Origin: Dipteris shenzhenensis | Taxonomy: Eukaryota | DNA: 64,000 nucleotides | Direction: 5' to 3' (one strand) | Assembly (NCBI GenBank): GCA_047967505.1 | Contig: CM106538.1 | Shown: positions 11,681-64,000 of the stretch, one piece after another | Layout of the letters: every line of letters starts with the position of its first letter | How positions within the stretch are numbered: position 1 is the first letter of the stretch | Position numbers and translations under genes: made by a program | The notes under the pieces: generated by a model | Told to the model about the DNA's origin: nothing | The model's input: the letters and a program-made list of their open reading frames with translations, nothing else | Database searches by the model: none

Positions 11681-11891
11681 GTTTGTTTTAAGTTGCTTTA
11701 CGCAGTCAGCACACGGTGACCCATGAATGATCAATGATGGATCATCTACTTCTACCTTTTCTGTCCTTCATGGATACTCGTTGCAAATGGCTACTACACA
11801 TACATCTTTCTCGTGAAGGGCTACTACATAATTATCTTCCTTGCCATATGTTTGCATGACATGCGTTAGTATAGCCACATGTCCACACATT

Positions 11892-28692: not shown

Positions 28693-31600
28693 TGTGGGGG
28701 TTAAAGGTCACTGTGCCTTAACCCCGGTTATGTACAATACTCAAACACATATATAAATGAATGAAAAAGAAGATTAGGGTGGTTCTGCACCCACCAAACT
28801 TGTGTGGCTCTCTGTCTCTCTCTCTCGCTCCCTCTCCCTCTTCCGTTCTTACTTCCGTTGAGAGCACTCTCAATTGGTATCAGAGCCCGGGTGATCTAGC
28901 TGAGCGTGCGTGAATGCTTGAAGCTCAGCAGCTCTGTGGGAGGAAGGAGAAGCTATGTGGGAAGCTTTGTGGGTGACTTTACTTACATCCGAGTGTGCAG
29001 AGACCTTGGAGAAACCTTTGGAAAAGTCACTTTGGCTTTGCGAAGTGGTTTTGAGAGCCTGTTAAGAGCTTTCAAAGAAAAAGTCATTTTTTGAGCTTTT
29101 CCCTGTTTCGTTCGATGACAGAGACTCCATATTGACTTGTAGAGGCAACTATTGCTTGCTTTTGGTATCCACATTACTTCAGGAGCCTGGAAACACCTTC
29201 ATTCCTGAATCTGGGATCATTTCATTGGATTTCTGACTCACTATGTCAGTTCCTGCGTTTTTTGCCCGGGTGTTGGAACTCAAGTTTGGAGCAACCATTT
29301 GCAGATCTGTCAGTTCCGGTGGACTCAGGAGGTCCTAAAACTTCTATGTTGCTCATCATTTGTACTCCGGTGGAGTTTACAAACAGCTCTGTTTCCAAAA
29401 ACGTTTTTCAGTCCGTGTGTTGGACCCAGTGATTGAGACAACGGTTTCCAAAACCGTCTGTCCCATTGCATTCCGGACGCCCAAAAACCCCTACCTATCA
29501 ATTCTTGCGCGATTCGGTGGAGGATTTTCAGAGTTATAAATCTCTGTGTATTCGATTTCGTCTCTCTGTTATGCATTTTTCATACTAAGGTTTTGAAACC
29601 TTAGATTTATGCCACATGGCAGTGGATAAGTGTTGACTCCCATTTCTCACTCATCGGTTGGGATTTTGGAGTTCTGGCAGAAGAAAAATATTTGCATATT
29701 TTCTTGCTGATTCCGATTATGCAATGGCACCCATGTTTTGAGGCATCTCAGGTTCTATTTTCAGTAGCGCTCATTACCGTGGGACTATGATTTCTTGAGC
29801 ATACCTTATGCAGATCACTCTGGTTGCAGTTTGAGCAGTGTGCACTCATTCGTGGTATGCATTGGGTTGCAATGGATGATTTATAGGCCATTTGGATGCA
29901 TTGCGGTCCTTGTTGGATGCGCTGATAGGCCCAAATTGCCTTGTGGGATGCTATTTTTTATGGACGCTTTGCACATGGATGCTATTTTATGCTGAGGGGG
30001 GACAGCTTTGAAACATTGCAGGTGATGCACTGATAGTGCTATGCTCTCTTGGATGAGACATTATTGATGCATATGCCAGTGGACAGTGTTTATGCTTGAG
30101 TCATTTAGCACTTATTGGCATTTTCTTTTGGGCCAGATTTACTCATATGGATGCATAGTATATGCACATGAGTCAGATGCTTTGAGCTTTGAGTTTTGGT
30201 GACATTTCACTCTATTGTGGCATACACATTTGGGTGCACCTAGTATTTGGTGTGATTCTCTCTTGCAGGCACTAGCATTTGGGATTTTTGCTTTATTTGC
30301 ATCATGGCATCCTCTTCCATGTCTGAAAAGGAGTTTTTCAGCATTAAAAAGTTTGATGGGACAAACTTTTCTTTGTGGAAAGAACAAATAAGGGATGTGC
30401 TTATTCAAAAGAAGCAGATTAAACCCTTGGCAGGTATTGAAGCTAAGCCTGTGGATATGTCTGAGGATGATTGGAATGAGTTGGATGCATTACCAAAGTC
30501 TACAATTAGACTTCATCTTGCAGAGTCAGTTTATTTCACAGTAGTAAATGAGCAGACTACGAAAGATTTTTGTGGAAGAAACTGTGTGCCACTTATGAGA
30601 AGGAAACTGCCTCTAATAAAGTTTACCTCATGAAGAGGTTGTTTGAGCTGCAGATGAAGGAAGGGGTCTCCATTGCTTCTCACTTGAATGAATTCAATAT
30701 TATTTTCAGCCAGCTTCAGGCTCAGAAAATGAATTTTGATGCGGAGACTAAGGCAATATTTCTCTTATGTTCATTGCCATCCTCATGGGATACCTTCCGT
30801 ACAGCTGTCAGTAACTCTGCACCTGGTGGAGTACTGAAATTTGATGATGTTGTGGGTAGCTTGTTGGTCGAGGAGATTAGACGGAAGTCTATGGATGGCA
30901 ACAAGCAGGATGCAGCCTTAAATGTGCAAAGGGGCAGATCACAGTTCAGGGGGAAGTCCCAAGAAAGAGTGAAGTCACGTAGCAAATCCAGGGCACAGAA
31001 CATTGAGTGTTACCATTGTGGCAAGAAAGGCCATATGAAAAAGGATTGCTACAAGCTGAAAAGAGAGCAAAAGGATAAGAAAAATAATGCAAATTGGGGT
31101 GCAAATCAAAAGGAAGAGAGTCCAAGGGAGGACAAAGGAAAAGTGAAGATCGAGGAGATCAATGCAGTCACACATGATAGTGACAATGATGTTCTCTTCA
31201 TGTCTACTTTATCTGCAGAGTTGCTTACCACTTCAGATGATGCATATTCCCAGGATTGGATTTTGGATTCTAGTGCTTCATTCCATGTTACTCCCCATAG
31301 GGAATGGTTCTCCACTTATGATAGTGGAAAGACAGATTGTGTGCATCTTGGAAATGACTATGCATGTGACATAGTGGGAGCAGGTGACATAAAGTTTTCT
31401 TTTGCAAATGGGTCTGCATTTGTTTTGAAACATGTGAGACATGTGCCTAAGCTGACCAAGAGTCTTATTTCAGTGGGTCAGCTAGATGATGCTAGTTTTC
31501 ACACCACTTTTGGCTTTCAAAGTTGGAAAATTCAGAAGGGCTCTATGCTTTTGGCCAGGGGTGCCAAGTGTGGGACTTTGTATCCCTTACATGTATCAGG

Positions 31601-41034: not shown

Positions 41035-41271
41035 ATGGAAGACCACCATGGCTTGCCTGATGGCTCTGCTCCCAACTCCATCCTCATGGTCACCGCCAGA
41101 GCTCCCACCAACATTGCCGTGATCAAATACTGGGGCAAGCGCGACGAGAAACTCATCCTTCCTATCAATTCCAGCATTAGCATCACTCTCAACCCTGACG
41201 ATCTCTCCGCCACCACCACTGTCGCTGCCAGCCCTTCTTTCCAATCGGATCGTCTCTGGCTCAACGGCAAG
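41035..41271 (+). CDS. MVD: MVD exon 1
   Basis: ATG at 41035; MEDHH...[13 protein letters not shown]...WLNGK, followed by GT. Confidence 0.95.
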
Positions 41272-41914
41272 GTCGATCTAACGCTCTTGGCCTTGCTGTT
41301 GAAACGTCCATTCTGCGAGTAGTCGTCTTATAATTTGGGCTCCGATGAATTCCTGAGCGGAACTTTGTTATCGCTGCTTAGGTTCATTGCTACGTCGAGA
41401 AGCTTGGATTGCATGTTCACAATGCTGCACAGGCTAGCTGCCAATTTCATCGAACCACTACTCTTTTCTCAAATTTTTGACAGTTCCAATGTGGCCCAAT
41501 GTGGCAGGAAGTCTCGATGTCAGGTGAGAGGTACAGAAATTGTCTTCGGGAGATCAGGTCTAGAGCGGCAGACGTTGTTGATAAAAATACTGGCGCCATT
41601 ATTAGAAAAGAAGATTGGGCAAATCTGCACGTACATATTGCATCAGAAAATAATTTCCCGACAGCTGCTGGGCTGGCGTCATCAGCTGCAGGATTTGCAT
41701 GCTTAGGTAATCCTGCTCCTTTCGGCTTCTACAAGACAAAAAGGAAAGTCTTTAAAGTGGTCAACCAAATGAGTGTACGTCGAACGAAATCTTGTCTGAG
41801 TGATGCGCAACAAAGGGAGTTTCAAGTGATACGTTTATGGATTTTCGAAGTGTTTTTTGTTTTTGCAAAAATTTCGTTAGCTAAATTTACTCCCTTCAGA
41901 ATGACTTTTAAAGT

Positions 41915-41952: not shown

Positions 41953-44900
41953 TGTTTTCTCAATCGTTACTCGCTACATTTTTCCTGCGCTCAATAGACC
42001 AAAAGGTAAAGCCCATGAGCATGCACTCGCTCTTCTTAATTTTGTTGAGCACGGGAAACATTGTCGCATACTTGAATTGCATTTTGAAATCTCCTTGAGA
42101 AAAATGTGGAATTGTGCTCCAAGACCTCTCAGAGTTCAGTTTCATGGTGAGGTTTGTTAGACATGTTTTTTTAAAATGTAATTATTACAAAAGCACAAGG
42201 AAAATCATAATTTTCATGTCGCTCGGAGTATTTCCATGAAAAATTTAGGTAGGCCTAATTGTAGCCTTCTCCTTTAGTGCTAGCCTTTGTCATGGCTGAG
42301 TCTGCCCTTCACGCTGACACAGACTCAGTACGAAGGCCTTTGTATAAGTGGATGCTCAAGTATATGTGGGTGTGGATTTGTATGTGTGAGAGCATATCTT
42401 TATACTATGGTATACACCCACCCTTGGGCGCTGATGATGTCTGTGGGGATGCCATATGAGTGACTATCATGAGATTGAAACTGCACTGTGTGTTGTATTT
42501 TTAAAGGATGAGTTTGGGCATGTTCCTGGATTCATCTAGATATAGGCCTAATTGTAGCGAAGGGCTGACCCAAAGAGGTGGTGGGAACATAGGCTACACA
42601 GATGGCGACCCAACTATTGGGCCATGCGGCTGACTTGGGCCTTTGTAGGGTAGATTATCTTTGGGTCTCTCTCTATCTCTACACATGGTGTTGCAGTCCT
42701 GGGTATCAAGGATCAACAGCCTTGTGCCTCCTTGTCCATGGTTTATACTCTGTTTTGAGGACATCTGTGTAATGAAGTCTGAGAGTGTCTCTCGTGCGAC
42801 TTACTGACGTTCCAAGCTTCTCATTCATGATTATTCTGCATCATTTGCAGTGTCTACATTATCACCATCTGCAACATTGGTACCTAGGTGATGTCACGGT
42901 AAGGGAAGGTGGCTGAATGGTCTCCGGATCCTTTGCTGAACCAACTCACTGATCATGCTTACCTTGCATGGGTGAATTGGGCACTAAAGAGGCCATGGGG
43001 TCTGTCTGGCATCTGGATCTGGTCTCAGAATAACATACAACCAACCAAAGTTGCAATCTGTGAATTGGAAAGTACGGGCCTTTTTGGCTGCAATCTCTGC
43101 TCATAGAGCCTCCTAGGGTGCCCAAACACTGAACTTACATGCTGTCCTGAAACGTGTTGCAAAAAGGCCCTCAATTTCACCTTCTGACTGTGTGGAATGG
43201 GCGGGAGTGTTGTAACTGGAGAAATTGGATCAATGCCCAGCCCCCAAATGAGGAGAGCTCAGGGGGCGACACCTCTGATAGGTAGATAGACCTGTAGGGA
43301 GTAGGGGTGAGGCTGCATGCATGGCTGCCACACGGGCAGAACGTAAATCTGCTGACAGGGCTGGTACATCGGGTACAGCAGGTACATAGGAGCTGGAACA
43401 GTGCGCAGCAGTAGCCAGTGGAAGACTGACAGCAGCAGGTTGGTTTAGACAGCAGCTGGTCGGAACTACAGCAGGCTGCACAGGAGCAGCAGAGGTCCAG
43501 GCCCAGCAAAGAGGCTTGCAAACAGGCCTATTTATAGGCAGGGGCTGTTCTTAGCGGCGACACCATGTCCCACTGAGATAGAGTTTGCAGACCCAGGAGA
43601 GGAGCTGTTCTTAGCGGCGACACCATGTCCCACTGAGATAGAGTTTGCAGACCCAGGAGTGAAGTGTGACTTTGTGGTGGAGGATGGAAGGTGCTGCTCA
43701 GCTATGCGTTGTGGATCAGTCTAGTACCAATGGCAACGATGAAGTGTCTCACTCAGAGATGGAGATTGAAGTCACCGAGGGGAGCATATGTTGAGTCTTG
43801 CACAAAGGCGGGGATTAAGATGGTACTTTTGGGAGATTTTCCTTGAGATTAGCGACAAAGACTTCGACAAGTTCGAGTTGCTGATTGACGGAGGTGATCA
43901 GGAGGTCTTTCCAGACAGGCCCAATTGCATGATGCTGGAGGGACCAGATGATGATCTTGTCAAATCCTTAATGCCAAGATCAGTGGGTGATAGACTCACT
44001 CCAGCGTTGGCTGGAGGGATTCCAACCAGTGGGGATCTACGTGGACCAACCACTAGGACCTCACTGTTTTCTAGGGGGACACCTGGAGAGTGTTGTCAGT
44101 GTGTTGGGTTACTGAAGAGACCGGAGTGCTCTTGACTTGGACTGGAGAATGTATTCGTGTTCCAGACTAGACCTGGTTGTTTGAGAGCGGTGCGGGGAAG
44201 GGAAGTTCCTGGGGATACTGGAGGTGCGGGATTCAGGACCAGAGAAACAAGACATCCTTATGTGTTTGAGTGCTTCTGCAAAGGAGCTGATGGAGCAGTA
44301 CTTTGCAAGAGTTGCTGTTGAGCCACAGTGTGTCATTGAGAGGGGTTTTGGAGAAATTTGGTCAATGCCCCACCTACGAGCTGCCAAAGGAAGAGAGATT
44401 AGGGGGTTGACACCTTAGCACATATATGGGTACATAATCCTAGGGTGAGGCTGCCATGTGGGCAGCAACATGGCTGCCACATGGGCAGCACCTAGATGTA
44501 CTGATAGGTCAAGAGGCTGAAGGTACGTGGGCTGGTACAGTAAGTACAGCTGGTACACAGGAGCTGGAACGGTGCACAGCAGTAGCCAGTGTAAGATTGA
44601 CAGCAGCAGGTTGGTTCAGAAGCAGACTGACAGCAGCACGTTGGAACTCCAGGAGGCTCCGCAGGAGCAGCAGAGGTCCAATCCAGCAAAGAGGCCTGCA
44701 AACAGGCCTATTTATAGGCAGGGACAGTCGGCTATGGAGCAGACCAAGTCTGCAAAGGAAGGCTGACAGACTGGTTGGCCAGTCTGTCAGATCGGGGTTG
44801 GCCAGTTGTCCAGACTGGGTCGGCCAGATCAGGGGCTATGTAACAGCCCCTGGTCAGGGCCACCTGTCCAGACTGGGTCGGCCAGATTAGGGGCTATGTA

Positions 44901-47900
44901 ACAGCCCACATTTGGAGTCTTTTGCAGTCCTGAGCATACCTCCTGCACACTCCAGCCTGAAGACCAGTACTCATTGTGGGGCAGAAATGCAGCAGCAAGC
45001 CTAAAGGATCTACATCGGCATGGAGTATTTTTGCAAAGCTGAAGTCCAGAACATCTGCAGCATACGTAAGTGCACACCTACACATGTAGGAGAGCTCGAG
45101 GGTGCAGCAAAGGGGGCTTTGTCTGCAGTACAACTTCAAAGTAGAACTTTGCAAGAGTGCTCAGCCTTCAAGCAGCTACTGAAGCCTACACAGAAGGGCG
45201 TGGCAGAGAGGAAGAGTTTCCAACAGAGGGTGCAGCAAAACATTTTGGTGCCTTATGTCAGATATTACATCTGAATACTCTTTCAGGTCTGGATTGTCCC
45301 CTTAGTTTCAAGTAAAGCACACGTGTCGTGTTCCACGCATTAGTATCTTGCGATCTTGGGGTTCATCTTCCGCTGCGGAGCAGTGTTGGCCCGAAGCAAA
45401 CAACCTGCCTCTACTTTTTCTAACACGGAGGGCACTTAGGACCTTGACAATTTGGTTGAAAATGCGTCCCAAACTTTATGCACAATTCCTTTTGAATGGT
45501 GCTGGAATAAGGCCATATTGGATAAATCACAAACTTGTCATGCTGTCTACTGAAAAAAGGCATCAGCGAGTGTGTAGACGTGTGCCTGAGATGACTTCCA
45601 TGATGCTCCTTTGCTTTTTGAACTCGGGAAAGATGTGGAAACTAGAGAAAGAAGGGGGAAATGAGGGAGAATGACAGGTTGGCTTGTCTTGCTTCCAACT
45701 GTTTGGAACCTCCTGTGTTAGCTGCCCAAAATCACAAAGTAAGATTTGGGCCTACTCTATCTCAGAAGATGAGACTACTTCTGATTTTACATATTTGCAT
45801 GTGCAGCTTCTAATGAAGTCTGCAAGTGTAAATGAACACAATCTGAAGCAAATACTCCGTGGGTCTTTAGAAACCCAATATAGCTGCTTATGTTTGGGCA
45901 CTGATGACGACATACGTGTTGCTTTGCTTGCTAAGTATGTCTTCCTTTTGTTTTTCAAAAAGTTTTTGTTACCTCTTTTTTCTTCTCTTTTATTTTCAGT
46001 GTAGATTTTTGGACTTTAGAACAACAAAAAAATCTAAATTTATATGAATGGATATATTCTAGTCTTACAAAGGTATACAAATATCAATGAAACATGACAG
46101 TTAAACAGAACATAAGCATTGGGTACAAACTCCCCCACCCTTCTTCCCTCTCTAAAGAGTGTAGTTTTCTACTTCCAAGTTGTCCAATTGCTGGAAGGCT
46201 CATGGCTCCAAGAGCTAGCTGCTTCCTTTGGGTTGCAAGAAGATGAAGGCCTCTCTCCTTATATCCATCCCCATGTTGTGTGGAAGCTCTGACAAGCTGA
46301 TATCTCAGTCTGGTAGAAGATTGGATGAAGAGGCCGCAATGGCATCCTACTAGTCAACTTGGGTAGATAATATGTGTTTTGAGTTTATCTAGTTAACTTT
46401 CATTCTGCTCTACATGTTTTCTTCCTTTGATCCCGTTTTACAGTTTTGTACAAGGTGATGCTTTCACGTGCATTATGTAACGTTTGATGCTTTAGTAAAT
46501 GCAATGCTGTAACTGAAGGAGGAGTGACTCTTCATGAAATAAGTAATGTCTGGTTGGAACTAATGGTGTTTGGTGTAATGCTCACAGTTTATGCCCTTGC
46601 ACAGCTAATGGGAGTCCGTGAAAGCTATGAAGGAGAGCTGTCTTCCATTGCCAGGTTTGTGTCATTGGCCTGGTGAATTACTGTTTTTAAGGTTAACTTT
46701 GATAGAAGTGTAACATCTTGTAGACTATGATTTCACAAGAGTTAGTTTGGCTGTTATATGGATGTAATATGCACAAGCCTGACCCATGTATATGGTGGCT
46801 AGAAAGCTATAGAAAAGTGGAAGAGTTGCATAAACTGAAAGTGAATAGGAGAGGGTGCAGGAGAAAAGAAGATTATTTATGTCTTTAGAAGATCCAAAGA
46901 AGAGGCTTATGAGACAAAGTGTAGATAATATTAAAATGGGTGAGCCTGAGTGCTTCTCCCAAATCACGTCATAAGTGAAGCGTGCTTCCCAATCAAAAGC
47001 ATGCGGAAATTATTTTTAAAATTTCAGCTAAAATCTTACTACTACTAACATTCACGTAGCATTAAACAATGTAAAAAAAAACCCGACAGCAGATTGCTTG
47101 TGAATAAGGCCTCTCCTGGTTAGAATTGGTTACGGGATCTATTTACAGTTTATCATTAAAATCGTAGAACATAACTTCTATAATTATAAAAGTTACAAAA
47201 CATCCATTATTCCAATTATGATAGCCCCAAACCTGGTAGATCCAGAGATCCAAAGAGTGTCCCATGTTGGAATCTAGCCATGCACTGAACTTAGATCTGG
47301 AACCATGCTAGATCAATGAAGGGGATTGCTGCTTTAGCCAAGCCCCAATGCAGCGGAAGATTATGAGATTCTATTCCACGTATGCACACAAGTACTCCTT
47401 TTAGATCTGTAGGTGTAGACAGCCAGATAGTGCAGTAAGGCACACAGGGGGGGCTCTTTCAGTTGAATCAGCTTATGCAGGTACTCTTCTTGATGAGGAG
47501 GAGCCTGAGACATTTGAAGAAGCAAAGGATAATGTGCATTGGATGAATGCCATGCAGGATGAATTGTAGTCCATTCATAAAAATCAGACTTGGGATGTCG
47601 TGGATTTGCCACCAGGCAAGAATGCCATGGGTACACGTTGGGTTTTCAAAGTCAAAAGAAAGCCAGATGGGTCCATTGATCGGTACAAGGCAAGGCTGGT
47701 TGCAAAAGGATATGTTGAGAAAAGGGCATAGATTATGAGGAGACTTTTGCTCCTACATCCAGATGACCATCATCAGGTCAGTTATAGCAATGGCTGCAAT
47801 GGAATGTTCATCAGTTGGACATTAAAATAGCTTTCCTTAATGGAGACTTGTTGGAAGAGGTTTATGTCAAACAACCTTCGGGCTTTGAAATTTCAGGAAA

Positions 47901-50900
47901 TGCACACAGGTATGCAAGCTGAATAAGGCTTTGTATGGCCTGAAACAAGCCCCACGTGCATGGTATGCAAAAATTGATGCCTTTCTAACCAGCAAGGGGC
48001 TGCACAATAGTCCAATTGAGAGCACCCTCTACATCAAGAAGGATGGGTCATCATTCTTTATGTAGATGACAGGCTGTAAAACGCATCTTCCGTTTCTTGC
48101 AAGGGTTATGCATTGGCAAGCTGTAAAACGCATCTTCCGTTACTTGCAAGGTACAAAGTCTTTTGGCTTGATGTTTCCTAGGGCGGGTGACTTGCAGATG
48201 CATGCTTACAGTGACTTAGATTGGGCTGGGGACTATGATACTAGGTAGTCCACCAGTGGGAATTGTTTCTTTCTAGGACATGCTTGCATTTCTTGGTTGA
48301 GCAAGAAACAATCTACAGTGGCTACCTCCTCATGTGAAGCTGAGTACAGGGCAGCTTTCACAGCGACAGTTGAATGTGTTTGGCTACGTCGTTTGTTTGT
48401 TGATCTTCGTTTTCATTGGAGGGTCCTTCTCCGATTCTCACTGATAGTTAGAGTGCTATAGTAGTGGCAAAGAATCCTGTGTTTCATGCTCGCATGAAGC
48501 ACATTGAGGTTCACTATCACTATGTCAGAGAGAAGTTGCATGCAGGAGAGATCAGTATGATTTATGTGTCAACACATGACAATGTTGCAGACATCTTCAC
48601 CAAAGCACTTCCACGTGAGAAGTTTGAGGCCTTTCGTAGTGCCCTGAACTTCTCTCCTTTTGGTGATTGATCATTTCCTTGTACATGACATTGGCACTGT
48701 AGGGGGGTGTTAGAATTACTATTATATTCTAACAGTGACCGATGTAATGTAATAAGTAGGTTAGGGCACTTTTCCCTCCTTAGAGGTTTTTCCCCCTAAC
48801 CCCAGTTAGTTCACTAACTACGGTTAGTGAAGGATAAGGTTTTGTCGCTTAGACAAAATCTTTCCCCGGTTTTGTATTTTCACACTTTATCTATTGCAAC
48901 TTACGTTTAGCACTCTGTCTCTCCTAGTCTCACTCTCTCCATCAATTACCAGGGGTTTCCATGTTTTAAAGAAAGGGCTTTCATTTGCTGTAATTTGATC
49001 AAGAGCAGCAAATATCAATATGAAAGATAATCCTTTGAAAAAGAGTATGGAAGGAATCCACCTAGCATAGGTGCAGCGCTACCAATTAGTTGCATAGCAA
49101 GGTCTGAGAATCTTTTTTTCGGAGGTCCATCGATTGATTGTGCAAATCCACGTTGAATGGTGAACCAGAAGGAGGCGCCGGACAAGACTTTCAAGGCTGT
49201 TTTAGGTGTGGCAGAGGCGATTTGCAGAAGAGGGCAGGTTGCGTGGAACCTGGCGCTATCTCCTGCGTTGAAATCTGTGCTGTGTGCTGCGTACTGTTGG
49301 AGAGCAGGGCTGGCCTGCCTGAGAGTGATCGGAAAAGCAGCAACAGTGGCTGTTCATGGCCAAAGGTAGTGCGAGAAAATCAGCTAGAGCCAGGCTGGTT
49401 TGGTCATGGGAAGATAGGCAGGCAAGGTTGCTGATTTCAGGCAGGTATGGCGGGATGAGCAGGAGAGAACTGGCATTGCAAACTGCTCCAAAAGATGCAG
49501 TCAAAGTCCACAGCCTGCTTGCAAGAGAAAAGGTGAAATTTGTACGGCCGTTTTTGGAGCGGAAGAAAAGACGTGAAAGTGCGATTCGTTTTCGCCCCTT
49601 TTTTTTCTCTTGCTGGTTGGTGGTTGCCAAAAATCAAAACGTGGGTTCAAGGAACCCTTGGGTAGTCTAGGGTTAGGCCTTGGGTGTAGGGCTGGTTGCC
49701 CTTTTTAGGCCCTCTAGGTACCCTTTTGTAGGTTGGTGCTTGGTGCCAAAGGGTGTGTCTATTCTAAGGGTTAGGACCCTTGGAATAGGTGTACCTTTTC
49801 ATGAAGGGGTGTAACCCTGTTTTAAAGAGGGGTGTCCCCACACGAAAAGATGTGTCTTTTTCACGATGGGGTGTGTCCCTTGGGTGAGGAGTAAAAAACT
49901 CTTCATCAAAAGGTGCGTCCGATGGTGAAAAAGGTGCGTCCCTTGGTTTTGGGACAGCCCAAGCACATCAAAAGACATGATTTTTGTCGTGTTCATTCAC
50001 ATCAACTCGTGATGTGAGGAAGATGGAGAGGCCACTAATGACTTAGGTAGGGTTGACGCTAAAAATTTTTATGCTCATTCTCTTCATCTCTTCCATGCAC
50101 AAAGTGCGTGGATATCCTTCTAGCGGAAGTAGACGTATTAGATAGGCGCTAGAAGGTGGGAGGTATTTCCTACAGGCAGGAGCAAAATTTGCTCTGATAC
50201 CACTGTAAGAAATCTTAGATTTACTATATTTAGAAATGTGCTAAGGAACAAAAAGGAGACTGAAATAAAATAGAACAAGGAATATTTGTATTGCTTGAGT
50301 GTCTGAGTGTCATCCATACAGTTGGGCCTCTATAGAGAGTGAAGAGTCACACATGAAAAGGTGTGTACTCCAAAGTGTATGTGCATGAAGAGGTGTGTAC
50401 CCCTTGTGAAGGGTGTGACCCTTAATGAGCGGGTACATTATAATGGTAGTGTCTCTTCAATAGAATGTCTCTTGTGAAGGGTTGTGCCTCATAGGAAGTG
50501 TCCCGTCGAAAGGGTATACCCTTTCACAATTGTCCATTCATCAAACTTGTAGGCCATCTTCTGGTGGTTCTAGTGATGCCCTATAGGCCAAGGTATGTGC
50601 CTTGTAGGCATAAATGTAGGCACTTGTAGTGTTAGTGCCTTTTAGGCCACATAGGACACTTAGTCCTATGTGACACCTAGGACACTTAGTCCTAGGTCTA
50701 GGTACAAGTACCTTGTACTTAGATTTTTCATTATCTAAGATTTGACGTGACGGCTAACTCCTCTTTGCTACTTGCACTCTCTCTCTCTTTCATTCGATCC
50801 TACAGTGGTATCAGAGCTGAGGTAGACTCGTCTCCTGCTCATCGGATTTGTACCAGTTGTACAGCCGTACCTCCGTACGTATTTGCGCCACCGTATGTTG

Positions 50901-53900: not shown

Positions 53901-56127
53901 AGATGCCAATGTAGGAAATCACGAAATCACAACAAATAGACGATTTTGAATTTGCAAAGAAAGAGAGCCTTTAGTATGTTTTTGAGCTTTTACAAGAGAG
54001 AACTCCCAAGTGGGGAGAGAACACGTCCAATTTGGAAGAACTCCACCAGCCCCTTGCTCTATGTCCTCCGGCATCTCAGTCATAATCATAGATGCCAGTA
54101 TATGAAATTCACAATCTAAATCCACGCGAAAATCCTTCGTGTAAATCTGTTACAAATTTCATCTTTAAATGTTTCCCTTGGGAAATGTGTTTGGCATAGA
54201 ACTTGTACAATCACCTCGCCTTGAAGTGTGTGCCTTAACAATAAGCCTTATCTTGAAATCCGCATCCTGGCTCCTCAATAAAATCACAATCCGTCTCAAA
54301 TTCGATCTTTCCGACTTCCCTGAAGTGCTTTTCTTTGAAACTTGCATTTCCCAAATGCAGGCCCCTTTCGAGACAAACATTGGAAGAAATTTCTCCACTA
54401 CAAAAGGTCTTAAGTCTAGAAGTAGTTGAATTTGGAGGATTGGACTTATTCTAAATTTGTATGATTGGACTTATTCTAGTCTTACAAAGGTATATATAGA
54501 ATTTGGAGGAATTCAAGAAGGTAGCCTCTGACCGTCTTTTTCAGAGTATGCTATAGCGGAAGTGTGTGTCCAATGATCTAGTTAATTGATACTAAGAAGG
54601 ACTGAAAAAAATAAAATAAAACTTTCATAACACAATTTAGAGCTCATGAACATGAAATAGAAATTGAAACACACAAACAATGACACCGTATGTGGTGCAA
54701 CAAACGGGGATTACTTCCATTAGAGCTAAGCCCTTGACATATTTTTATATTAGAATCTAGCTATATGTATATGCTGAAACTCAGTTCAGTGTTTGGTTCA
54801 CATGCTTTATATGTCTTATGGTCTCATAGGTTGTTTGGCTGCTTACAGAAATCAATAAATCTCTCTTTTCGTTTTTTCTTTTTTTCTTCTCTCTCTCTAG
54901 TAGATGTATTATAGTATACAGATATCTTTGTTTAAATTAATAATGGAACTTCTAGTGGGAAGTATGTTTGTTTTCACTTCTTTATCTAGAATGCGCCTGC
55001 CATTGGGAGGATGCATTTGTAATGTGCCATCAGTTTGATATGAAGGTTTGAAGGCAAGCAGGTTTAATCTATCAAGCACAAATAATACATTACTTGTTTG
55101 TAAGCACTTTGATGGATGTTGTAGAAAGAGTTATTGAGGCTTGCCTGTCCTCTAGTTCAAAATTTAACTTACAGGTAGGCCCTTTGTGCCTATATTCCGA
55201 TCAGAAAGAAGTTAGGTTGTTGACAGGAAAACACTTGCATATGGGTTCTTGCAGGGTTGGCTCTGGAAGTGCATGCCGCAGTCTTTATGGTGGATTTGTA
55301 AAGTGGATAATGGGAAAGGTAATTCCTCGTTTTAAGTTGTCCCAAAGTTTGTTTGTTTGGACTTGTGGGATTTTGACTTACACTAGTAAGTTGCCATAAG
55401 TACTGACTCTTCTTGTTGTTATTGGGAAAGCAGGACGATGAAGGCAAGGACAGCATTGCAGTTCAGCTTGCTGATGAGAAGCATTGGGAAGATCTTGTGG
55501 TCATTATTGCAGTGGTGTGTAAACTGACAAACATGGTGTGCGTGGGTGCCTTCGATAGGCTATTAACTCTGAGAAGCATGGTGTGCTTGGGTGCCTCTGA
55601 TAGATAATTAACAAGACGCTTTGATATTTGTATACTGCTGAAATCTAAGAGAATTGCTGCTTCATTTCAGGGTTGTCCCCTGATAGACAGGGTTGTAGTA
55701 GTTGTATGAAGTACTGACATGGCTGGATCTTTTTTTTGTGTGCTTAAACAGGTAAGTTCTCGTCAGAAAGAAACCAGCAGTACAGCTGGCATGCAAGAAA
55801 GCGTTTGCACTAGTAAGCTTTTACATCACAGGGCTAAGGTAGGCCTTCTCTTTATCTATGTGTAAGTGTCATATCCTGGTCTCACAAGTAAATTTCTAAG
55901 GGTTTGTACAAAGCCTTAGATGATAACAAAACTGAGCTCGAGGCTGATTTCTAGAAGAAAATTATCCAGGAGCTGGTCCCCAAACTTATTGTGGACATGG
56001 AAGATGCAATCAAACATCATGATTTTGCAGCATTTGCTCGCATCTGCTGTGCAGACAGCAATCAATTTCATGCCACATGCTTGGACACTTCTCCTCCAAT
56101 ATTCTATATGAATGACACTTCTCGAAG
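41035..56127 (+). CDS. MVD: Diphosphomevalonate (mevalonate-5-diphosphate) decarboxylase, exons 1-7; 3' exons outside the window
   Basis: Exons 41035-41271, 41508-41706, 46588-46654, 55255-55318, 55434-55514, 55752-55838 and 55970-56127 are all GT-AG and phase-compatible. Motifs: [75 protein letters not shown]. Confidence 0.96.
41508..41706 (+). CDS. MVD: MVD exon 2
   Basis: [12 protein letters not shown]...[15 protein letters not shown]. Confidence 0.95.
41917..41948. repeat. (CT)n microsatellite in MVD intron 2
   Basis: Seen directly. Confidence 0.9.
42266..42542 (+). mobile_element. Structured non-coding repeat, copy A, with ~16-bp TSD
   Basis: TAGGCCTAATTGTAGC at 42250-42265 and 42543-42558; homologous to 62547-62883. 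Confidence 0.85.
42560..45330. mobile_element. Decayed LTR-retrotransposon-derived sequence with internal duplications
   Basis: ...GCAACA T TGGTACCTAGG (possible LTR end and PBS at 42876-42888). 43290-43545 resembles 44440-44725; 60-bp tandem at 43544-43659; ~58-bp tandem at 44807-44908. Confidence 0.45.
46588..46654 (+). CDS. MVD: MVD exon 3
   Basis: [28 protein letters not shown]. Confidence 0.9.
47300..48944 (+). mobile_element. Decayed copia 3' half (RT/RNase H with internal deletion) and 3' LTR 48708-48944
   Basis: [17 protein letters not shown] and [32 protein letters not shown] then TGTTAG. Confidence 0.85.
49000..50203 (-). mobile_element. Leader region of an LTR element on the minus strand with tRNA-Met PBS
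   Basis: GCTCTGATACCA at 50191-50202 lies next to TGTAAG at 50204. Confidence 0.55.
50204..50804. repeat. LTR-derived TG...CA segment between two divergent PBSs
   Basis: TGTAAG at 50204, CCTACA at 50804; PBS on - at 50191-50202 and on + at 50806-50817. Confidence 0.7.
50850..51281. repeat. Dense GTAC/CCGTAC motif array in the copia leader
   Basis: About 33 GTAC counted by eye in ~430 bp. Confidence 0.9.
51420..51521. repeat. ~20-bp tandem repeat (GACATTGAGTCACATTTGCAG), about 5 units
   Basis: Seen directly. Confidence 0.8.
55255..56127 (+). CDS. MVD: MVD exons 4-7 cluster
   Basis: [66 protein letters not shown]. Confidence 0.95.
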
Positions 56128-56447
56128 GTAAGTTTCCTGAGTCCATTCTTGGTTGAATTAGTCACACAGCCCCTATCTTCTTGAATCATTGTTGGAATGA
56201 TTTTCTTCCACCTTCCGTACCCCTCAATTGTTTAGATCATTCCATGTTGCTTTGGGAAGGGTCAGTGTTTTGAGTACAAAGGTTGCAACAATGGTGGATG
56301 TTAGGTTTTCTTCCAAATGTGTGCATATTGAAATCGAAGCTTTTTTATTTCTTATTTTTGCTGGTGCTGTGGTGGGAGTGGAAGGATCAGATTGATGCCT
56401 GTCTCGATGGCAAAGGGTTCAAAATGAGGCTGCAATGAAGAACAAGT

Positions 56448-59400
56448 TGTTAGAAAGTGAAATCCCACCAGAGGGTATACCACAGCGGAAGACTGATAGA
56501 TTAACCCAGGAATTACAGGCGGAAGTGTTTCACTACGGAATCAAGTCTCATCAACATGTGTATACTTCACAACCATTCATGTGTGTGCAGACTAGCGAAT
56601 AGATTGTGCTCAAAGACAATACAGAAGCAACTCTATGTATTTACGTCCGTCCACAAACTGTACAAGATACAATACCAAAAGGTTCTCCTACTATATGCTT
56701 GGCAGCTTTAGATCTCTGAGCTTGCATGCTCCACTGAGCGTATGTAGATTCTCTGTCCAAAGGATCTCTTCCACCTTTGTGTGTGGAAACTCAGCTTACG
56801 TGGGCAGCACCTTGAGCTAAGTCCGCAGCCCTCTGTGTATACGCCCAGGGATGGTCCTCTTGCTGCTCCTTCCTGCTCTGGTTTGCTGCTCCAAGTGATG
56901 AGGTACTGAGGCCCTAGGGCCACCTTTTATAGGGCTGGAGCCCCTGCCAAAAAACCGACCTACTTGGCCGACTTTTACTGCTCCTACCAGCCGACTGGAG
57001 GGGGAGGGTGTAAATAGCCCTCCTGGAGCTCAGTTGCTTGCTTTGATTGGCCCTACCTGGCCACATGGCTTCCATCCATTGGTCTAGGCAGTCCCACCCT
57101 CCAAACCTGCCCATAGGGTCCAAAACCTTTGCTGAACCTGTTTTCCCTGTGCATTTCTGGCCTCTTCATGTATGGACAGCATCTGGATCTAGATCTACCC
57201 TCCATGGTGGATCTCCTCTGCTAGGTACTTCCACATTCTCTCTGCTGCCCACATGACAGCTCATGTGCTGCCCATGTGGCAGCCCCATGCCAAAATTCTG
57301 AATTCTATCAACCTATAGTCCACCCCCCCGATGCACTCCTCATATGGGGGCTCACAAGTGGGGAGGTGACCTATCTATTCCAACACCCCCTCTCCCCGAC
57401 CCATTTTGGCCCAATCCCAATCCGTCGATGAAGATGCTCCGGGAGCTCTCATATCGTAGTTCTCTGGAACACTTTGGGGTGGTCATAGTCTTCTCTTGGG
57501 TTTTCAACTAGTGGCTCTTGCTCCGCCAGGTCGGGTCCTGTTTTTGCACAGCAGTCTGGTATGCAGGTCCATACTTGGCAGCACCTAATGGCACCATCAC
57601 CTTCAGTCACAAACCTGCCTCTGAACTTGCGCTCTGTAGAATCCAGATTACCTGGACCATCAAGCTCTAGCTGTAGTTTTGTATCGTTGTCCCCCTCTAA
57701 GTCACAACCACCGTCTGACCTCGAGTCTTCATGTCCTATCGAATAACACGAGCCAAGCAGCAAGGTGACTCTAGGCACTTGTCATTGTTTATCACCTTCA
57801 CAATTGATCTTGACTCCTCTTTTGACCAATCCTCAATGTCTGACATTGTGACAGTCACATAGGGGTCTACATATTTGATCTCAGCAGCACACGGAGTGGC
57901 CACCAGGAAAAGTTCTCCCCGCCACTTGAGTTGACTTCTCTGACTCTGGGTTGGCACCCTTCTTCTTTCTGCAATCTTTCACAAAATGTCATGGCTCATC
58001 ATAGTAGAAGCACTTCCTCTCCTTTCTCTTCTTCTTGTTCTCTTCATCTGAAGAGTCCGCTTTGTCGTCATATTTGGGGTTGCCTTTACCAGGGTTGCCC
58101 TTACTCTTGCTTGTGCTCCTATCCTGAGCTATCAGGGCCTTGTCATCCTTATCCGTACCATCGTAATTCTTTTCCCAAGCTTCTTGCTGCAGCAGTAATG
58201 GAACTTGTTCCTCAAAAGTCACTAGCGTCGCCATATGCGTGCAGTCATCGTAGTCACAAAACTACTAGTACTTGTATAAATGGATGCTCAAGTATGTGTG
58301 GGTGTGTGGATTTGTATGTGTGAGAGCATATTTTTATACTATGGTCTCCACTCACTGTTGGGTGCTGATGACGTCAGTGAGGATGTCATAGTAGCTAGTC
58401 CTTGCTATGCATGATGGAGTTTATGGTTTTCAACCTTGTGAGTGACTATTATGAGATTGAAACTGCACTATGTTGTGTTTTTAGAGGATGAGTTTGGGAA
58501 TGTTCCTGGATTCATCTAGGTATATATAGTACCATAGCTCCGGGGGAGCATTCCCAACAAGAGCCTTGCCATCCTAGTCGAGCTCGTCCTTTGACCAATT
58601 GCCGCCAGTTGATCCCGCACCACCTTCATCTTGGTATGTGTTCCTGCGTCCTTCATCCATCCTCGTGCCGTACAACCTTGTCTTGAGGTCCAAGATTCTT
58701 GCCTCATTGTCGAGTTCATACATATCCCTCAATGTCGTGCAGGCCTCGAAAGAAATGCTCGCCATCGAAATATGTGGCAGCACCATGTTAGCCATCGTAC
58801 CCACAATGATAGCCAAGGCTTTCACATCTCGGATATGCCATGCCCTTACTAATACAGGGTTTGTTGGCGTTGTCACCACTGCCAAGGATGATGTGGCTAG
58901 AGTAGTTACGGTGGCGTGAGGTATCATCCCGTTAGAATCCCCAACGACTCCCTCTACTCTAAGTGGCTCCGAATCTTCATTTTCTACAAGGGGTAGTTGG
59001 TCTCGTTGAGCTTGCCTGACTCTCTAAAATTTGGGATCTGGTATCTATTGGCCATGTTAATGAACTGAAAGAGGTAAAGAGTGTTGTACCCTTGTTTGAA
59101 CCTCAGTGTCCCACTTGGGTGCAATCCTTCAGATGTCTGCTTGAACCTGAGGCCCCCTCCTGGGTACAATCCTTCAGACACTAAAGCTAATTCCTTCGAG
59201 CAGTGAATCAAGGTAGTCTTTAAGAAAGGTCCTTGCCTTCAAGCTCCACTTCTCGAGAACTTCTGTTAGGACTTTAATACCATGTTAGAAAATGAAATCC
59301 CACCAGAGGGTATCCCGTAGCGGAAGACTGATAGATTAGCTTAGGAATTACATGCGGAAGTGTTTCACTATGGAATCAGTGTCACAACAAATGTTTCTTG

Positions 59401-60246
59401 ATTTTGCTAGGCGTTTCAAAACCATTCATGTGTGTGCAAACTAGCAAATAGATTGTGCTCATAGACAATATAGACGCAACTCTTATATATTTCCGTCCAT
59501 CCACAAGTTGGACAAGATACAATACCGAAAAGATGCCCGGATTATATGCCTGGCACCTCTAGATCTTTGAGCCCTTGTGCTCCACTGAGCGTATGTAGAC
59601 TCTCCGTTCAAAGGATCTCCTCCACCTTGCTATTTGGTAACTCAGCCTAGGTGGGCAGCACCTTGAGCGAAGTCTATAGCTCTCTATAGGTCTCTTTCAC
59701 CTCCTGTGTATAGGCCCAAGGATGTTCCTCCTTCTTGCTCTTGGTTTGCTGCTCCAGGTAATGAGGCCCATTGGGCCACCTTTTATAGGGCTGGAGCCCC
59801 TGCCCAAAAGCCGACCTGCTTGGCCGACTTTTACTGCCCCTACCAGCCGATCAGAGGGAGAGGGCTATAAATAGCCCCCAAGTGCTCAGTTGCTTTCTTT
59901 GATTGGGCCTGCCTGGCCACATGGTTTCCATCCATTGGCCCAGTCAGTCCCACCCTTTATCCTTTGCCCCAAACCTACATATAGGGTCCAAAATCTTTGC
60001 TGAACCCCTTTTCCCGGTGCATTTCTATCCTCTCCATGTATGCACAACATCTGGATCTAGATCTGCCCTCCATGGTGGATCTCCTCTGTTAGGTACTTCC
60101 ACATTCTCTCTGCTGCCCACATGACAGCTCATGTGCTGCCTATGTGGCAGCCCCATGCCTAATCCTATCAAACTATGCTCCATCCCCCTGATGCACTCCT
60201 TATATGGGGGCTCACAAGTGGGGAGGTGACCTATTCTATTCCAACA
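56448..60246 (-). mobile_element. Non-autonomous copia-derived element: long LTRs plus decayed gag only (TR-GAG-like)
   Basis: LTRs at 56448-57385 and 59283-60246; TSD CAAGT at 56443-56447 and 60247-60251. Degenerate PBS TGGTATTAAAG; PPT at 57386-57397; gag remnant GKLNETNYPL..LPRSY..CFYYDEP. Confidence 0.9.
58272..58526 (+). mobile_element. Structured non-coding repeat, copy B, inserted in gag
   Basis: Flanked by TAGTAC (58266-58271 and 58527-58532); same right end as copy A. Confidence 0.85.
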
Positions 60247-60374
60247 CAAGTTTGCGATGCCTCTTTCAAGGAGCCAAGTTTTGTGTTAAAGTTAATCCCA
60301 AATCTTTGGGATTAAACCACAGGATGTGCCTAACATTGTATTCTTAACTTGTTATCATCACTACAAGTTCAAAG

Positions 60375-61630
60375 TGTTGGAAATAGAGGATAGAATCACT
60401 CACACCTCACTTCCTATCTAGCTCATACAACACTCAGAAAAACTGAAAGAGAGATAGGACAAAACTCAGATATATTCCTCCACAATCGTGGGCAACAAAA
60501 GCTCAAGGATGAGCATGTACAAACAGCCCGAGATGTTGTCAATGATGCTGAGCCTATTCCTCTCCGTGTCCGCTTGCTTGTGTGCAAGGCTGTAAGTGCA
60601 GGTGATGAGGAATGAGGCGGGAAGGGGGGCTTTTATAGGAGGGGCTAGGCCCCCTCAATCTTGCCGACCAGGGAGTTGGCTTCCTGCCCAATGCACCGAC
60701 TGACCAGACTGGTTGGCCTTTGCTGGCCAATCAGGTCGGCTTGGGCCAGGCCTATTGAAGGGCCCATAAGCCCCGCTTATGGGCTGCTGTTGCAGCTCCC
60801 AACCCGCTTGTGTGTAGGTCAGGAGGCGCCTAGGATGCCGCACCACCTTGCTACTGCAGTGCGGGTTCCCTGCCAGGTAGGTTTGTCCCCTCAAATCGGG
60901 GGCTCACAGGTGGGGTAGTGACCTTCTAACACCCCCTCTCAATGTCACAGCTGTGGGCCGATCCCCATGCGTCGAATGAGGTGTTCCAATTGCTCCCTGG
61001 GAAGCGTCTGCGTGAAGACATCTGAGATGTTGGTGGTTGGGTAGTATATCAACTCTACGACTTCTTCGTCGATGAGTTCTCGAACAAAGTGGTAGTGGAC
61101 CTCGATGTGTTTCGTCCGTGTGTGAAACACGGGGTTGTTGGTGATCGCTATGCAACTTTGGTTGTTGCACATAATTGCAGTCACATCTTCTTGGGCCACA
61201 TTCATGTCCTCCAAGATCCACCTGAGCCACAATGCTTCATATGCCGCTGTACAGGCAACCTTGTACTCTATCTCTGTAGATGAAAGGGCGACATTAGGTT
61301 TTTTCTTACTCAGCCATGACATGGCTCGTGATGAAAGTAAGAAATAATATCCAGAGGTCGATCTCTGGGTATCAATGTCACCTGCCCAATCACTATCACA
61401 GAAACCTCCCAATTCAATGCCTCTTGTATGAGTGATGCTGTAGGTGCAGGTACCCTTCAAGTACCTTAGCACCCTCATACTTACGTCCCAATGAGCCTTC
61501 TTAGGTGTGGCGGAGAACTGACAGAGCAATCCAACTGCGAAGGAAATGTCTGGTTGAGTATTGGTGAGGTAAAGCAAACTCCCCACCAAGCATCGATATA
61601 GTGATGAAACAACTGGTTGAGATGGATCAG
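60375..61630 (-). mobile_element. copia 3' end: RT C-terminus/RNase H (60945-61630), PPT and 3' LTR 60375-60931
   Basis: [37 protein letters not shown]...CTAACA. Confidence 0.88.
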
Positions 61631-62158
61631 CTGATAGGGCAACACACCATTAAAGATAGAAAGAATTATCACAATACCAACAGGCCGCAACTTGGACGAA
61701 AACTTCACAAGGTGAAATTTGCATGTCTGCTAATACGGCAGAAGCATATACCTAGATGAATCCAGGAACATTTCCAAACTTATCCTCTAAAAACACAACA
61801 TAGTGCAGTTTCAATCTCATGATAGTCACTGGTTATCACCTCCATCATGCATAGCAGGGACTAGCTACTATGACATCCCCACTGACGTCATTAGCGCCCA
61901 ACAGTGGGTGTAGACCATAGTATAAAAATATGCTCTCACACATACAAATCGATACACCCACACATACTTGAGCATCCATTTATACAAAGTCTTCATACTG
62001 AGTTTCTGTCGACACTCCGGAGGTGAAGGGCAGACTCAACCATGACGAAGGCTAGCACTAAAGGAGAAGGCTAATCAAAAGGTAGTCCGAAATCTCTTCA
62101 TTGAAGCTACAACTGCTTGTGAAGTCTAAACATTTTCATTTTAGTCTCTTCCCAACGA
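61626..62158 (-). mobile_element. Structured non-coding repeat, copy C (inverted)
   Basis: Reverse complement of 62458-63003. Confidence 0.88.
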
Positions 62159-62447
62159 CAGAGAGGCAAATCTCTATCTCGACACAGAGGGGGATTTGTG
62201 GCTGGTATTGATTCTATATGTGGATGACCTCATCATTACTGGGGATCGTACGAAGAAGATTGCTCAGGTCAAGAGACTTCTTATGGAGGACTTCGAGATG
62301 ATTGACTTAGGCATACTTCACTACTTTCTTGGGATTGAGGTGAAGCAGGGAAAGAGCAGTATCTTTATTTCACAAGAGAGGTATTGCAGGGAACTGCTCA
62401 AATGCTTTGAGATGGAAAATTGTAAAGTAGCTGTGACTCCCATGGAT
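62159..62447 (+). mobile_element. Inverted copia RT fragment
   Basis: LILYVDDLIITGD...DLGILHYFLGIEV...VTPMD. Confidence 0.85.
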
Positions 62448-63340
62448 TTAGATATGCTCGTTGGGGAGAGACTAAAATGAAAATGTTTAGACTTGACAAA
62501 GCAGTTGTAGCTTGAATGAAGAGATTTCAGACTACCTTTTGATTAGCCTTCTCCTTTAGTGCTAGCCTTCGTCATGGCTGAGTCTGCCCTTCACCTCCGG
62601 AGTGCCGACAGAAACTTAGTACAAAGACTTTGTATAAATGGATGCTCAAGTATGTGTGGGTGTGTGGATTTGTATGTGTGAGAGCATATTTTTATACTAT
62701 GGTCTACACCCACTGTTGGGTGCTGATGACATCAGTGGGGATGTCATAGTAGCTAGTCCCTGCTATGCATGATGGAGTTTATGGGTTTCAACCTTGTGAG
62801 TGACTATCATGAGATTGAAACTGCACTATGTTGTGTTTTTAGAGAATGAGTTTGGGAATGTTCCTTGATTCATCTAGGTATATGCTTTTGCCGTATTAGC
62901 GGACATGCAAATTTCACCTTGTGAAGTTTTCGTCCAAGTTGCGGCCTGTTGGTATTGTGATAATTCTTTCATTTATCTTAAATGGTGCGTTGCCCTATCA
63001 GCTAGATTTAGATTTAGATATGCTCGTTGGGGAGAGATTAAAATGAAAATGTTTAGACTTCACAAGCAGTTGTAGCTTGAATGAAGAGATTTTGGACTAC
63101 CTTTTGATTAGCCTTCTCCTTTAGTGCTAGCCTTCTTGAGTCTGCGCTTCACCTCCGGAGTGCCAACAGAAACTCAGTACGAAGACTTAGTATACATGGA
63201 TGCTCAAGTATGTGTGGGTGTGTGGATTTGTATGTGTGAGAGCATATTTTTATACTATGGTCTACACCCACTGTTGGGCGCTGATGATGTCAGTGGGGAT
63301 GTCATAGTAGCTAGTCCCTGCTATGCATGATGGAGTTTAT
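62448..63340 (+). mobile_element. Structured non-coding repeat, copies D (full, ~556 bp) and E (partial), head-to-tail
   Basis: AGATATGCTCGTTGGGGAGAGA starts both units (~62450 and ~63016), joined by (AGATTT)2. Confidence 0.9.
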
Positions 63341-63711
63341 GGTGGAGTGGACATAAGCTTGCAATCATGCATGTTGAATCTGTCCAAGAGCTTTTGAACA
63401 TACTTGGACTGAGACATAACAATGCCACATTTCTCTTGAATAAAGTGGATCCCCAAAAAGAAATGTAACAAGCCCAAGTCTGACATATCAAATGTAGCTT
63501 TCAATTGGACTTTGAAATCTGCAATTACTTCCTCATTTGATCTAGTGAGCAGCATGTCATCTACATAAAGAATGATGACTAAAATATCCCCCCCATCCTT
63601 CTTGATGTAGAGGGTGCTCTCAGTTGGACTATTGTGCAGCCCCTTGTTGGTTAGAAAGGCATCAATTTTTGCATACCATGCTTGTGGGGCTTGTTTCAGC
63701 CCATACAAAGC
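63341..63711 (-). mobile_element. copia RT fragment, same family as 47300-48944
   Basis: [25 protein letters not shown]; nucleotide match to 47930-48047. Confidence 0.88.
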
Positions 63712-64000
63712 TGTTACAAAGAGAGAGAGTGTGAGAGCAAGAGAGCTGAATGAAGTGCTTGCAATAGAAGAAGTGACTAATACAAGAAGTGGGATGGGTT
63801 TTGTCTAAGTGACAAAACCTTATCCTTCACTAACCGTAGTTAGTGAACTAACTGTGGTTACGGGAAAAAACCTCTAAATGAGGGAAAAGTGCCCCTAACC
63901 TACTCATTACATTACATTGGTCACTGCTGAATTATAATAATAATTCTAACACCCCCCTGCAGTGCCAATGTCATGTACAAGGAAATGATCAATCACCAAA
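63712..64000 (-). mobile_element. 3' LTR (63712-63951), PPT and pol end of a copia element continuing beyond the window
   Basis: The reverse complement matches 48660-48940. Confidence 0.88.

Follow-up and report, generated by a model that had tools for sequence, protein, structure and literature searches.

The locus and its repeat copies

The subject of this report is a family of non-coding repeats in the genome of Dipteris shenzhenensis (assembly GCA_047967505.1, contig CM106538.1), of which a stretch of 64,000 nucleotides, hereafter the window, was analysed. The original prediction had described five copies, A to E, of a hairpin-rich unit of ~560 bp situated in the introns of the gene MVD, and had likened them to retrozymes and Penelope-like elements (PLEs). 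That such a family exists is borne out by blastn, which, with copy D (62445-63003) as query against the window, finds it in five places including D itself, and a repeat search of the window returns the same five-copy picture together with the inverted arms formed by C and D (Table 1). Only the start formerly given to C, 61626, was 3 nt too generous, the copy itself being sound. No reading frame of any copy matches Pfam, in agreement with the earlier statement that the repeats lack an open reading frame (ORF).

The surroundings of the copies are dominated by one host gene and by retrotransposons. Pfam searches of the 104 ORFs of at least 85 aa recover many Ty1/copia genes, MVD and an S1/P1 nuclease. 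The MVD exons, located by tblastn with two MVD homologues, extend to about residue 301 of ~414, and share 79-84% identity with their best matches, which include, among those named, Sphagnum, Taxus and Ceratopteris. Since copy A is flanked by mapped exons, it lies within MVD intron 2; copies B to E are probably intronic too if the gene continues beyond the end of the window, so that the intronic location proposed for the whole family is established for A and holds for the other four on that condition.

Table 1. Positions of the repeat copies, their component parts and the genes that surround them (M, mobile core; X, insert enclosing it; RT, reverse transcriptase; TSD, target-site duplication; 'unit' refers to positions within the ~560-bp repeat)
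Feature	Position in the window	Strand	Remarks
MVD exons	41059-41271, 41499-41705, 46572-46664, 55250-55318, 55422-55520, 55740-55838, 55967-56152		
Copy A	blastn extent 42262-42547, insert 42266-42542	+	unit 100-441, 74.5% to D
Copy B	blastn extent 58272-58525, insert 58272-58526	+	unit 186-439, 96.5% to D
Copy C	61629-62158	-	unit 14-559, 92.7% to D
Copy D	62446-63003	+	blastn reference, query taken as 62445-63003
Copy E	63011-63342	+	unit 1-340, 93.5% to D
TSD of A	42250-42265 and 42543-42558		16 bp, perfect, TAGGCCTAATTGTAGC
TSD of B	58266-58271 and 58527-58532		6 bp, TAGTAC
Repeat around M in D	62452-62458 and 62880-62886		7 bp, ATATGCT
Layout of C	M 61746-62158, X 3' part ~61651-61742, 21 nt 61629-61649	-	
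Layout of D	X 5' part 62446-62458, M 62459-62883, X 3' part to 62981, copia-type 21 nt 62983-63003	+	
Layout of E	G + X 5' part 63011-63024, M from 63025	+	cut at ~unit 340
Outer Ty1/copia pol, RT part	63340-64000, RT from 63804 down to 63340, off window end	-	RVT_2 profile to 241, ends ...STPP
Outer Ty1/copia pol, RNase H part	60945-61649	-	resumes at 61649/61628: (WCVALSA)DPSQPVVSSLYRCLVG...
Inner RT piece, 289 bp	62159-62445	+	RVT_2 profile 147-242, ends ...VTPM at CCATGG
D-E joint filler	63004-63010	+	AGATTTA, part of (AGATTT)2.8 at 63003-63019

A mobile core with a common 3' end

The key to the family is provided by the insertions that are flanked by direct repeats, namely A, B and the one contained within D. 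All three share a 3' end, ...CTAGGTATAT (to within 2 nt), at which the common element reads ...CATCTAGGTATAT, and A and B stop there, ~120 bp short of the 'end' of C and D. Their 5' ends vary, falling at positions 1 (D), ~90 (A) and ~172 (B) of a non-coding core of ~425 bp, M, which is present at full length in C and D. We place the limits of M as we do because A and B end at this point, because ATATGCT brackets M in D, where it directly precedes the M 5' end CGTTGGGG, and because C starts at the identical 5' end (62158). The direct repeats around the three insertions are of variable length, 16, 6 and 3-7 bp, the last being given as a range since ATAT may be the tail of the element; the repeats of 16 bp at A and 6 bp at B had been reported before and are present at both flanks.

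Two of these insertions stand apart from the cluster formed by C, D and E. Copy A is old, with ~75-90% identity to the other copies, an internal loss of ~48 bp and a truncated 5' end. Copy B, likewise 5'-truncated, sits within a minus-strand copia gag, and two further gag proteins encoded in the window can be aligned across its junction only after the insert and a single copy of the repeat have been removed, which carries one alignment to aa 203 instead of 196 and the other to aa 191 instead of 186. Judged from these alignments, B is a true insertion. Microhomology is found at the 5' junctions of both copies (TAGC at A, AC(T)T at B), as also, in the form of ATGG/CCAT, within the C-D-E block, and the earlier remark on junction microhomology was thus well founded. 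The common 3' end, the 5' truncation, the variable direct repeats and the 5'-junction microhomology together support the view that M is a non-autonomous, non-coding element that would move via RNA.

The composite nature of the 560-bp unit

What C and D possess beyond M is, as read from its sequence, host context, consisting of an insert of ~108 bp, X, and of 21 nt of Ty1/copia pol coding sequence. The ~560-bp repeat family therefore survives as a family, but not as a single unit, being a composite of M, X and the 21 nt of copia. Leaving M aside, X amounts to ~13 nt 5' of it and ~95 nt 3' of it, and is bracketed by ATGG (62442-62445, 62982-62985) at a copia CCATGG. With a view to a transposon with terminal inverted repeats or a MITE, whether X or the whole unit, the ends of X, ATTTAGATA... 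and ...TATCTTAAAT, form a weak, gapped, AT-rich inverted match flanked by ATGG, as seen in few copies. As a separate observation, X (62446-62458 plus 62887-62981, and likewise in C) occurs only in the copia-embedded copies. The start of D, GATTTAGAT (D-L-D), may belong to copia or to X.

Translated in the frame of the outer copia sequence DPSQPVVSSLYRCLVG, the 21 nt that close C and D (TGGTGYGTTGCCCTATCAGCT) give WCVALSA. When the outer copia protein is aligned by MAFFT with nine relatives, only two 1-residue gaps are needed if the 21 nt are retained, and a 9-residue gap opens if they are left out; moreover, A-L-S stands in the window where all nine relatives show K-L-S. Adiantum, Ginkgo and Pinus entries are included among the copia relatives. 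The reading frame, the nearly gapless alignment and the placing of A-L-S at the K-L-S position are the reasons for which we regard these nucleotides as probable copia coding sequence.

The C-D-E cluster and its origin

The three remaining copies lie together in the linker between the RT and RNase H regions of a minus-strand copia pol. On the plus strand the order is antisense outer RNase H, antisense C, sense inner RT (147-242), CCATGG-X-M-X-21 nt (D), AGATTTA, X-M to ~340 (E), and antisense outer RT from TPP. The inner RT piece shares only 44% aa identity over 96 aa with the outer copia RT; its best protein relatives are only 48-53% identical, 3 of 33 reading TPMDLNVKL, and no nucleotide relatives of it were found within the window. 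Judged from this divergence, it belongs to a second Ty1/copia family. When the units are compared by blastx with the copia polyproteins of the window, matches occur only in the flanks and in the 289-bp spacer, none in the units themselves. An uninterrupted version of the outer copia was sought, and the related piece at 47928-48936 does not reach the insertion site.

The junctions of the block repeatedly show ATGG/CCAT, at the copia/X 5' boundary (CCCATGG|ATTTAG), at the X 3'/copia boundary (TTAAATGG|TG) and at the boundary of E with the outer copia (TTTATGG|TGGAG), the latter two partners being joined through a TGG/CCAT overlap at 63340-63342. The arrest of both copia RT pieces at one codon can be ascribed to one common site together with microhomology. 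The three copies lie at equal distances from one another (94.4-95.6% identity), and their private changes relative to the five-copy consensus are few and mostly transitions; therefore one event could explain them. The D-E period of 566 bp holds host flank and is therefore not an element concatemer. The circular or concatemeric intermediate of the original prediction is contradicted both by this period and by the C/D arms, since both arms carry the 21 nt of copia and the ~108-bp non-mobile insert. The tandem and inverted arrangement thus appears to be a rearranged genomic segment, not one made of element ends joined head to tail. As to how the block arose, we would suggest, with low confidence, either a microhomology-mediated event with multiple switches (replicative, or carried out by RT inside a copia particle) or one of the twin-priming type.

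The same architecture may be viewed through the behaviour of PLEs, on the supposition that a PLE enzyme with RT and GIY-YIG domains mobilises M and that the inverted-plus-tandem cluster is simply the usual form of a PLE insertion. C is inverted and head-to-head with D, the D-E pair is in tandem with an (AGATTT)n joint, for which Tandem Repeats Finder, in keeping with the earlier description, gives 2.8 copies of a 6-bp unit (TAGATT) at 63003-63019, and the direct repeats are here of variable length. According to the extracts of PMC8557442 on which we draw, PLEs insert with truncated 5' ends and as partial tandems, beside whose 5' end an inverted copy, likewise 5'-truncated, is often found, and they are biased towards microsatellites; Naiad and most Chlamys PLEs have no hammerheads, non-autonomous Chlamys elements give head-to-tail multicopy insertions, and PLEs are present in conifers and spike mosses. 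We nevertheless consider this explanation unlikely. The copies contain no hammerhead, a PLE RT or GIY-YIG domain occurs in none of the 245 ORFs scanned, and A and B are simple single insertions. X, together with 21 nt that read as host copia, is contained in C, in D and so in the D-E period, as it would not be in a pseudo-long terminal repeat (pLTR) of element sequence; a foreign copia fragment of 289 bp separates C from D; and E is truncated at its 3' rather than its 5' end. It is because of the host flank within the repeats and the foreign spacer that rearrangement of the cluster is favoured over PLE insertion.

It might also be argued that a single retroposon, provided with two alternative 3' ends or with a 3' transduction of ~100 nt, accounts for the whole 536-559 bp, and that C, D and E derive from a single target-primed event in copia, in which twin priming was combined with template jumps onto copia RNA. 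The topology would suit two cDNAs primed at the two ends of the target, the 3' end of C lying at the left flank and the inner RT, D and E running in the opposite direction to join the right flank by a 3-nt overlap; the equidistance of the three copies also agrees, and 5' inversions and microhomology joins of L1 are documented in the extracts of PMC4245944. Against this, A and B both stop at ~unit 440 and not 559, the ATATGCT repeat brackets M within D, the final 21 nt fit the copia frame and its K-L-S motif, and the two cDNAs would have to overlap by 327 nt and undergo at least three template switches. We regard such a single event as improbable, to about the same degree as PLE insertion.

Two copia families carry X/M here at one and the same codon. 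There is a slender chance, smaller than that of either of the foregoing explanations, that something more unusual is at work: a Penelope-like or otherwise unusual retroelement of a land plant that does not flower could carry M as a passenger, a structured RNA without a hammerhead, whose integration intermediates would produce inverted and tandem arrays together with target flank, or, alternatively, X/M could prefer the CCATGG of the RT/RNase H linker across copia lineages.

The C/D arms constitute an inverted repeat of ~530 bp with a 289-bp spacer; they are 95-97% complementary in the stretches reported, the longest of which measures 284 nt at 95%. If transcribed in the MVD pre-mRNA, they could fold into a long hairpin. 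Scrambled plus-strand pieces related to the outer copia, at 47928-48936, match 63592-64000 in inverted orientation at 85-96% and ~15 kb away, and LTR-like direct repeats of 81% identity occur at 56448-57386 and 59283-60247, ~2.85 kb apart and directly downstream of the outer copia pol. Between them this pair brackets only a gag-like region, the one struck by copy B, which points to two copia elements that share an LTR or have recombined.

Predicted structure, promoters and ribozymes

Folding of the whole unit exceeds expectation on both strands (z = -2.5 plus, -3.7 minus); 'hairpin-rich' is thus acceptable in a modest sense, and since the excess is not strand-specific it therefore constitutes no evidence for an RNA. 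A 14-bp stem-loop is found 9 nt from the 3' end of M, after which the sense RNA ends ...UAGGUAUAU. Its predicted stability is -16.8 kcal/mol in B (z = -3.96) and -14.6 kcal/mol in A (z = -3.29), with the opposite strand of the same stretch weak in both (B -6.4, A -5.0 kcal/mol; z = -1.6, -1.1), and 5 of the 14 pairs of the B stem are G.U when paired manually from the predicted dot-bracket. In these two clean retrocopies the 3' stem-loop is, by prediction, both strong and strand-specific. The check for stem covariation that had been suggested gave none, 0 of 83 predicted pairs showing a compensatory change in an RNAalifold analysis that had low power with its five copies and returned a covariation term of +4.66.

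A retrozyme, that is, a hammerhead-bearing non-autonomous retroelement spread by self-cleaved circular RNA, had figured in the original prediction, and the size of ~560 nt without an ORF, the tandem D-E pair and some predicted secondary structure are in its favour. Rfam at the gathering score yields 0 matches in the whole window, and at E <= 10 yields seven weak matches in 61000-64000, with no ribozyme among them; the hammerhead core CUGANGA...GAAA, expected 7.6 times in the window, occurs there five times, and none of these matches lies in a copy. Direct terminal repeats (LTRs) around a core are absent at the copies, a tRNA-Met primer-binding site (PBS) motif, allowing at most 2 mismatches, has 12 matches in the window and 0 at a copy, and the direct repeats of 16 and 6 bp compare with 4 bp in the extracts of PMC4918200. 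With no ribozyme, no compensatory changes, a fold excess on both strands, and copia and X inside the repeats, we reject the retrozyme as scarcely credible.

The minus strand of the unit attracts attention for a different reason. As previously pointed out, TGACGTCA (61883-61890) and TATAAAA (61921-61927) follow each other on the plus strand of C; the former, a palindrome found also in B (58371-58378), precedes TATAAAA by 30 nt on the strand antisense to M, and its CpG has decayed in D, E and A. The two could form an antisense promoter, or could mean nothing. Together with the wealth of LTR elements in the surroundings, this promoter-like pair is what would recommend a solo LTR or LTR fragment on the minus strand, with TGACGTCA in U3 and TATAAAA 30 nt downstream. 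The real element ends, however, do not have TG...CA termini, direct repeats of 16 and 6 bp are at variance with an integrase, truncation is one-sided with the opposite end fixed, no copy has a PBS beside it, and the sequence resembles no other LTR element in the window, all of which renders an LTR origin very improbable.

Features of RNA polymerase III (Pol III) transcription were likewise sought by means of consensus motifs for its boxes. The B box has two matches in the window and 0 in the copies; the A box has 16, of which the sole one touching a copy (63340-63350) takes in the last 3 nt of E and otherwise copia. ARAGORN detects 0 genes, and a tRNA-like head is absent.

A model for the mobilisation of M

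We propose, at a probability of roughly 0.55, that M is a non-LTR retroposon moved in trans by an enzyme of the long interspersed nuclear element (LINE) type, that X and copia are its context, and that the C-D-E cluster is a later rearrangement. A LINE-type endonuclease/reverse transcriptase encoded elsewhere in the genome would recognise the 3' end of M, perhaps in the manner of the 'stringent' LINEs that read a 3' stem-loop, would nick the target, and would copy the M RNA starting at its 3' end (target-primed reverse transcription). Copying would often halt early, the 5' end then joining at microhomology. The fixed 3' end, the variable 5' ends and the variable direct repeats match this target-primed mechanism. 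The M copy of C and D lies within X, itself lodged at CCATGG in the copia RT/RNase H linker, and a compound rearrangement of copia-X-M would later have generated an inverted copy and a tandem copy and captured the 289-bp RT piece, the pieces being joined through template switches or end joining at microhomologies of 3-4 nt.

Several points weigh against this proposal. Only three insertions carry the pattern, and the 7-bp repeat of D is only moderately improbable, a common 7-mer at the two flanks of M arising in 327 of 20,000 shuffles (p about 0.016). The stem-loop is decayed in C (z = -0.25) and D (z = -1.79), and, as had been stated before, there is no poly(A) at the copies. Pol III A and B boxes and a tRNA-like head are lacking, and M is thus not a canonical short interspersed nuclear element (SINE). 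As to a partner enzyme, RVT_1, AP-endonuclease and GIY-YIG are found in 0 of the 104 ORFs of at least 85 aa in the whole window, and Pfam reveals no LINE or PLE domain in 141 ORFs of 55-84 aa between 34 and 64 kb, these being 141 of the 291 short ORFs of the window and bringing the ORFs scanned to 245. Finally, the copia reading of the 21 nt depends on seven codons, and the extension at unit 441-559 could instead be a 3' transduction or mark a longer subfamily.

Of the non-autonomous structured-RNA retroelement originally envisaged, the non-autonomous, non-coding and RNA-moved character is retained and the circular or concatemeric intermediate is given up. The family is an ordinary non-autonomous non-LTR retroposon nested in copia, with one cluster locally rearranged. 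Its significance is twofold: it adds one more non-autonomous retroposon family to those by which the introns of a large plant genome grow, and it illustrates in detail how a Penelope or retrozyme architecture can be mimicked when nested insertion (copia > X > M) is followed by microhomology rearrangement.

Other features of the window

Elsewhere in the window, a tandem segmental duplication of ~2.0 kb (8580-10618 and 11888-13886, 93% identity) carries in both duplicates the same S1/P1-nuclease exon (Pfam profile 10-74; 9494-9763 and 12779-13036). An uninterrupted Ty1/copia gag-pol frame of 1270 aa at 30552-34361 (+), with gag, zinc knuckle, protease-like barrel, integrase and RVT_2, is possibly an intact element, and a tRNA-Met PBS-like 12-mer is found at 28875. 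MVD intron 2 also contains direct repeats at 43358-43659 and 44529-44907, ~1.17 kb apart and 87-93% identical, with internal tandem duplications of 58-60 bp (43540-43659, 44800-44907).

Comparison with known systems

With the plant LTR retrozymes, as the extracts of PMC4918200 portray them, M shares a small size, a non-coding and non-autonomous nature and a predicted structure. According to the same extracts these retrozymes need LTRs bearing hammerhead ribozymes (HHRs), a PBS and polypurine tract (PPT), and 4-bp TSDs, and M differs from them in having no HHR, LTRs, PBS/PPT or 4-bp TSD. Nor does the animal type, with its tandem monomers each containing an HHR, correspond to what is seen here, where the copies show no HHR and the D-E period holds host flank.

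The cluster, as distinct from M, resembles the PLEs, MRC1/Chlamys and the animal non-LTR retrozymes in its inverted copy abutting a tandem, its 5' truncation, its variable repeats and its microsatellite joint, in so far as the extracts of PMC8557442 and of bioRxiv 10.64898/2026.07.22.740005 describe these systems. It departs from PLE systems in the lack of a hammerhead and of a PLE protein in the ORFs scanned, in its copia and X flank, in the foreign copia piece and in the 3' truncation of the downstream tandem copy. A kinship with the twin-priming and microhomology rearrangements of L1, as given in the extracts of PMC4245944, is apparent in the inverted juxtaposition, the 2-4-nt overlaps and the small target loss, whereas the overlap of the pieces by hundreds of nt, the tandem repeat and the piece of another element set the cluster apart.

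For M itself the closest parallels are the pairs formed by LINEs and SINEs. M is unlike SINEs in having neither a head of the tRNA, 7SL or 5S type nor Pol III boxes, its length of ~425 nt exceeds what is usual for a SINE, and the TSD pattern of RTE-SINEs, in which T lies ~10 nt behind a T-run, cannot be recognised at its three sites. Stringent LINEs, in the extracts of PMC4176376, bind a 3' stem-loop, and those of PMC3472496 and PMC6007223 describe plant L1 and RTE LINEs with structured 3' ends in common with SINEs, the pairs being ZmSINE2/3 with LINE1-1_ZM, and TS or Au-like SINEs with RTE. Like the members of such stringent pairs, M is without an ORF and has a fixed 3' end and truncated 5' ends; its flanking direct repeats differ in length, its 5' junctions show microhomology, and a stem-loop precedes a short tail that is not poly(A).

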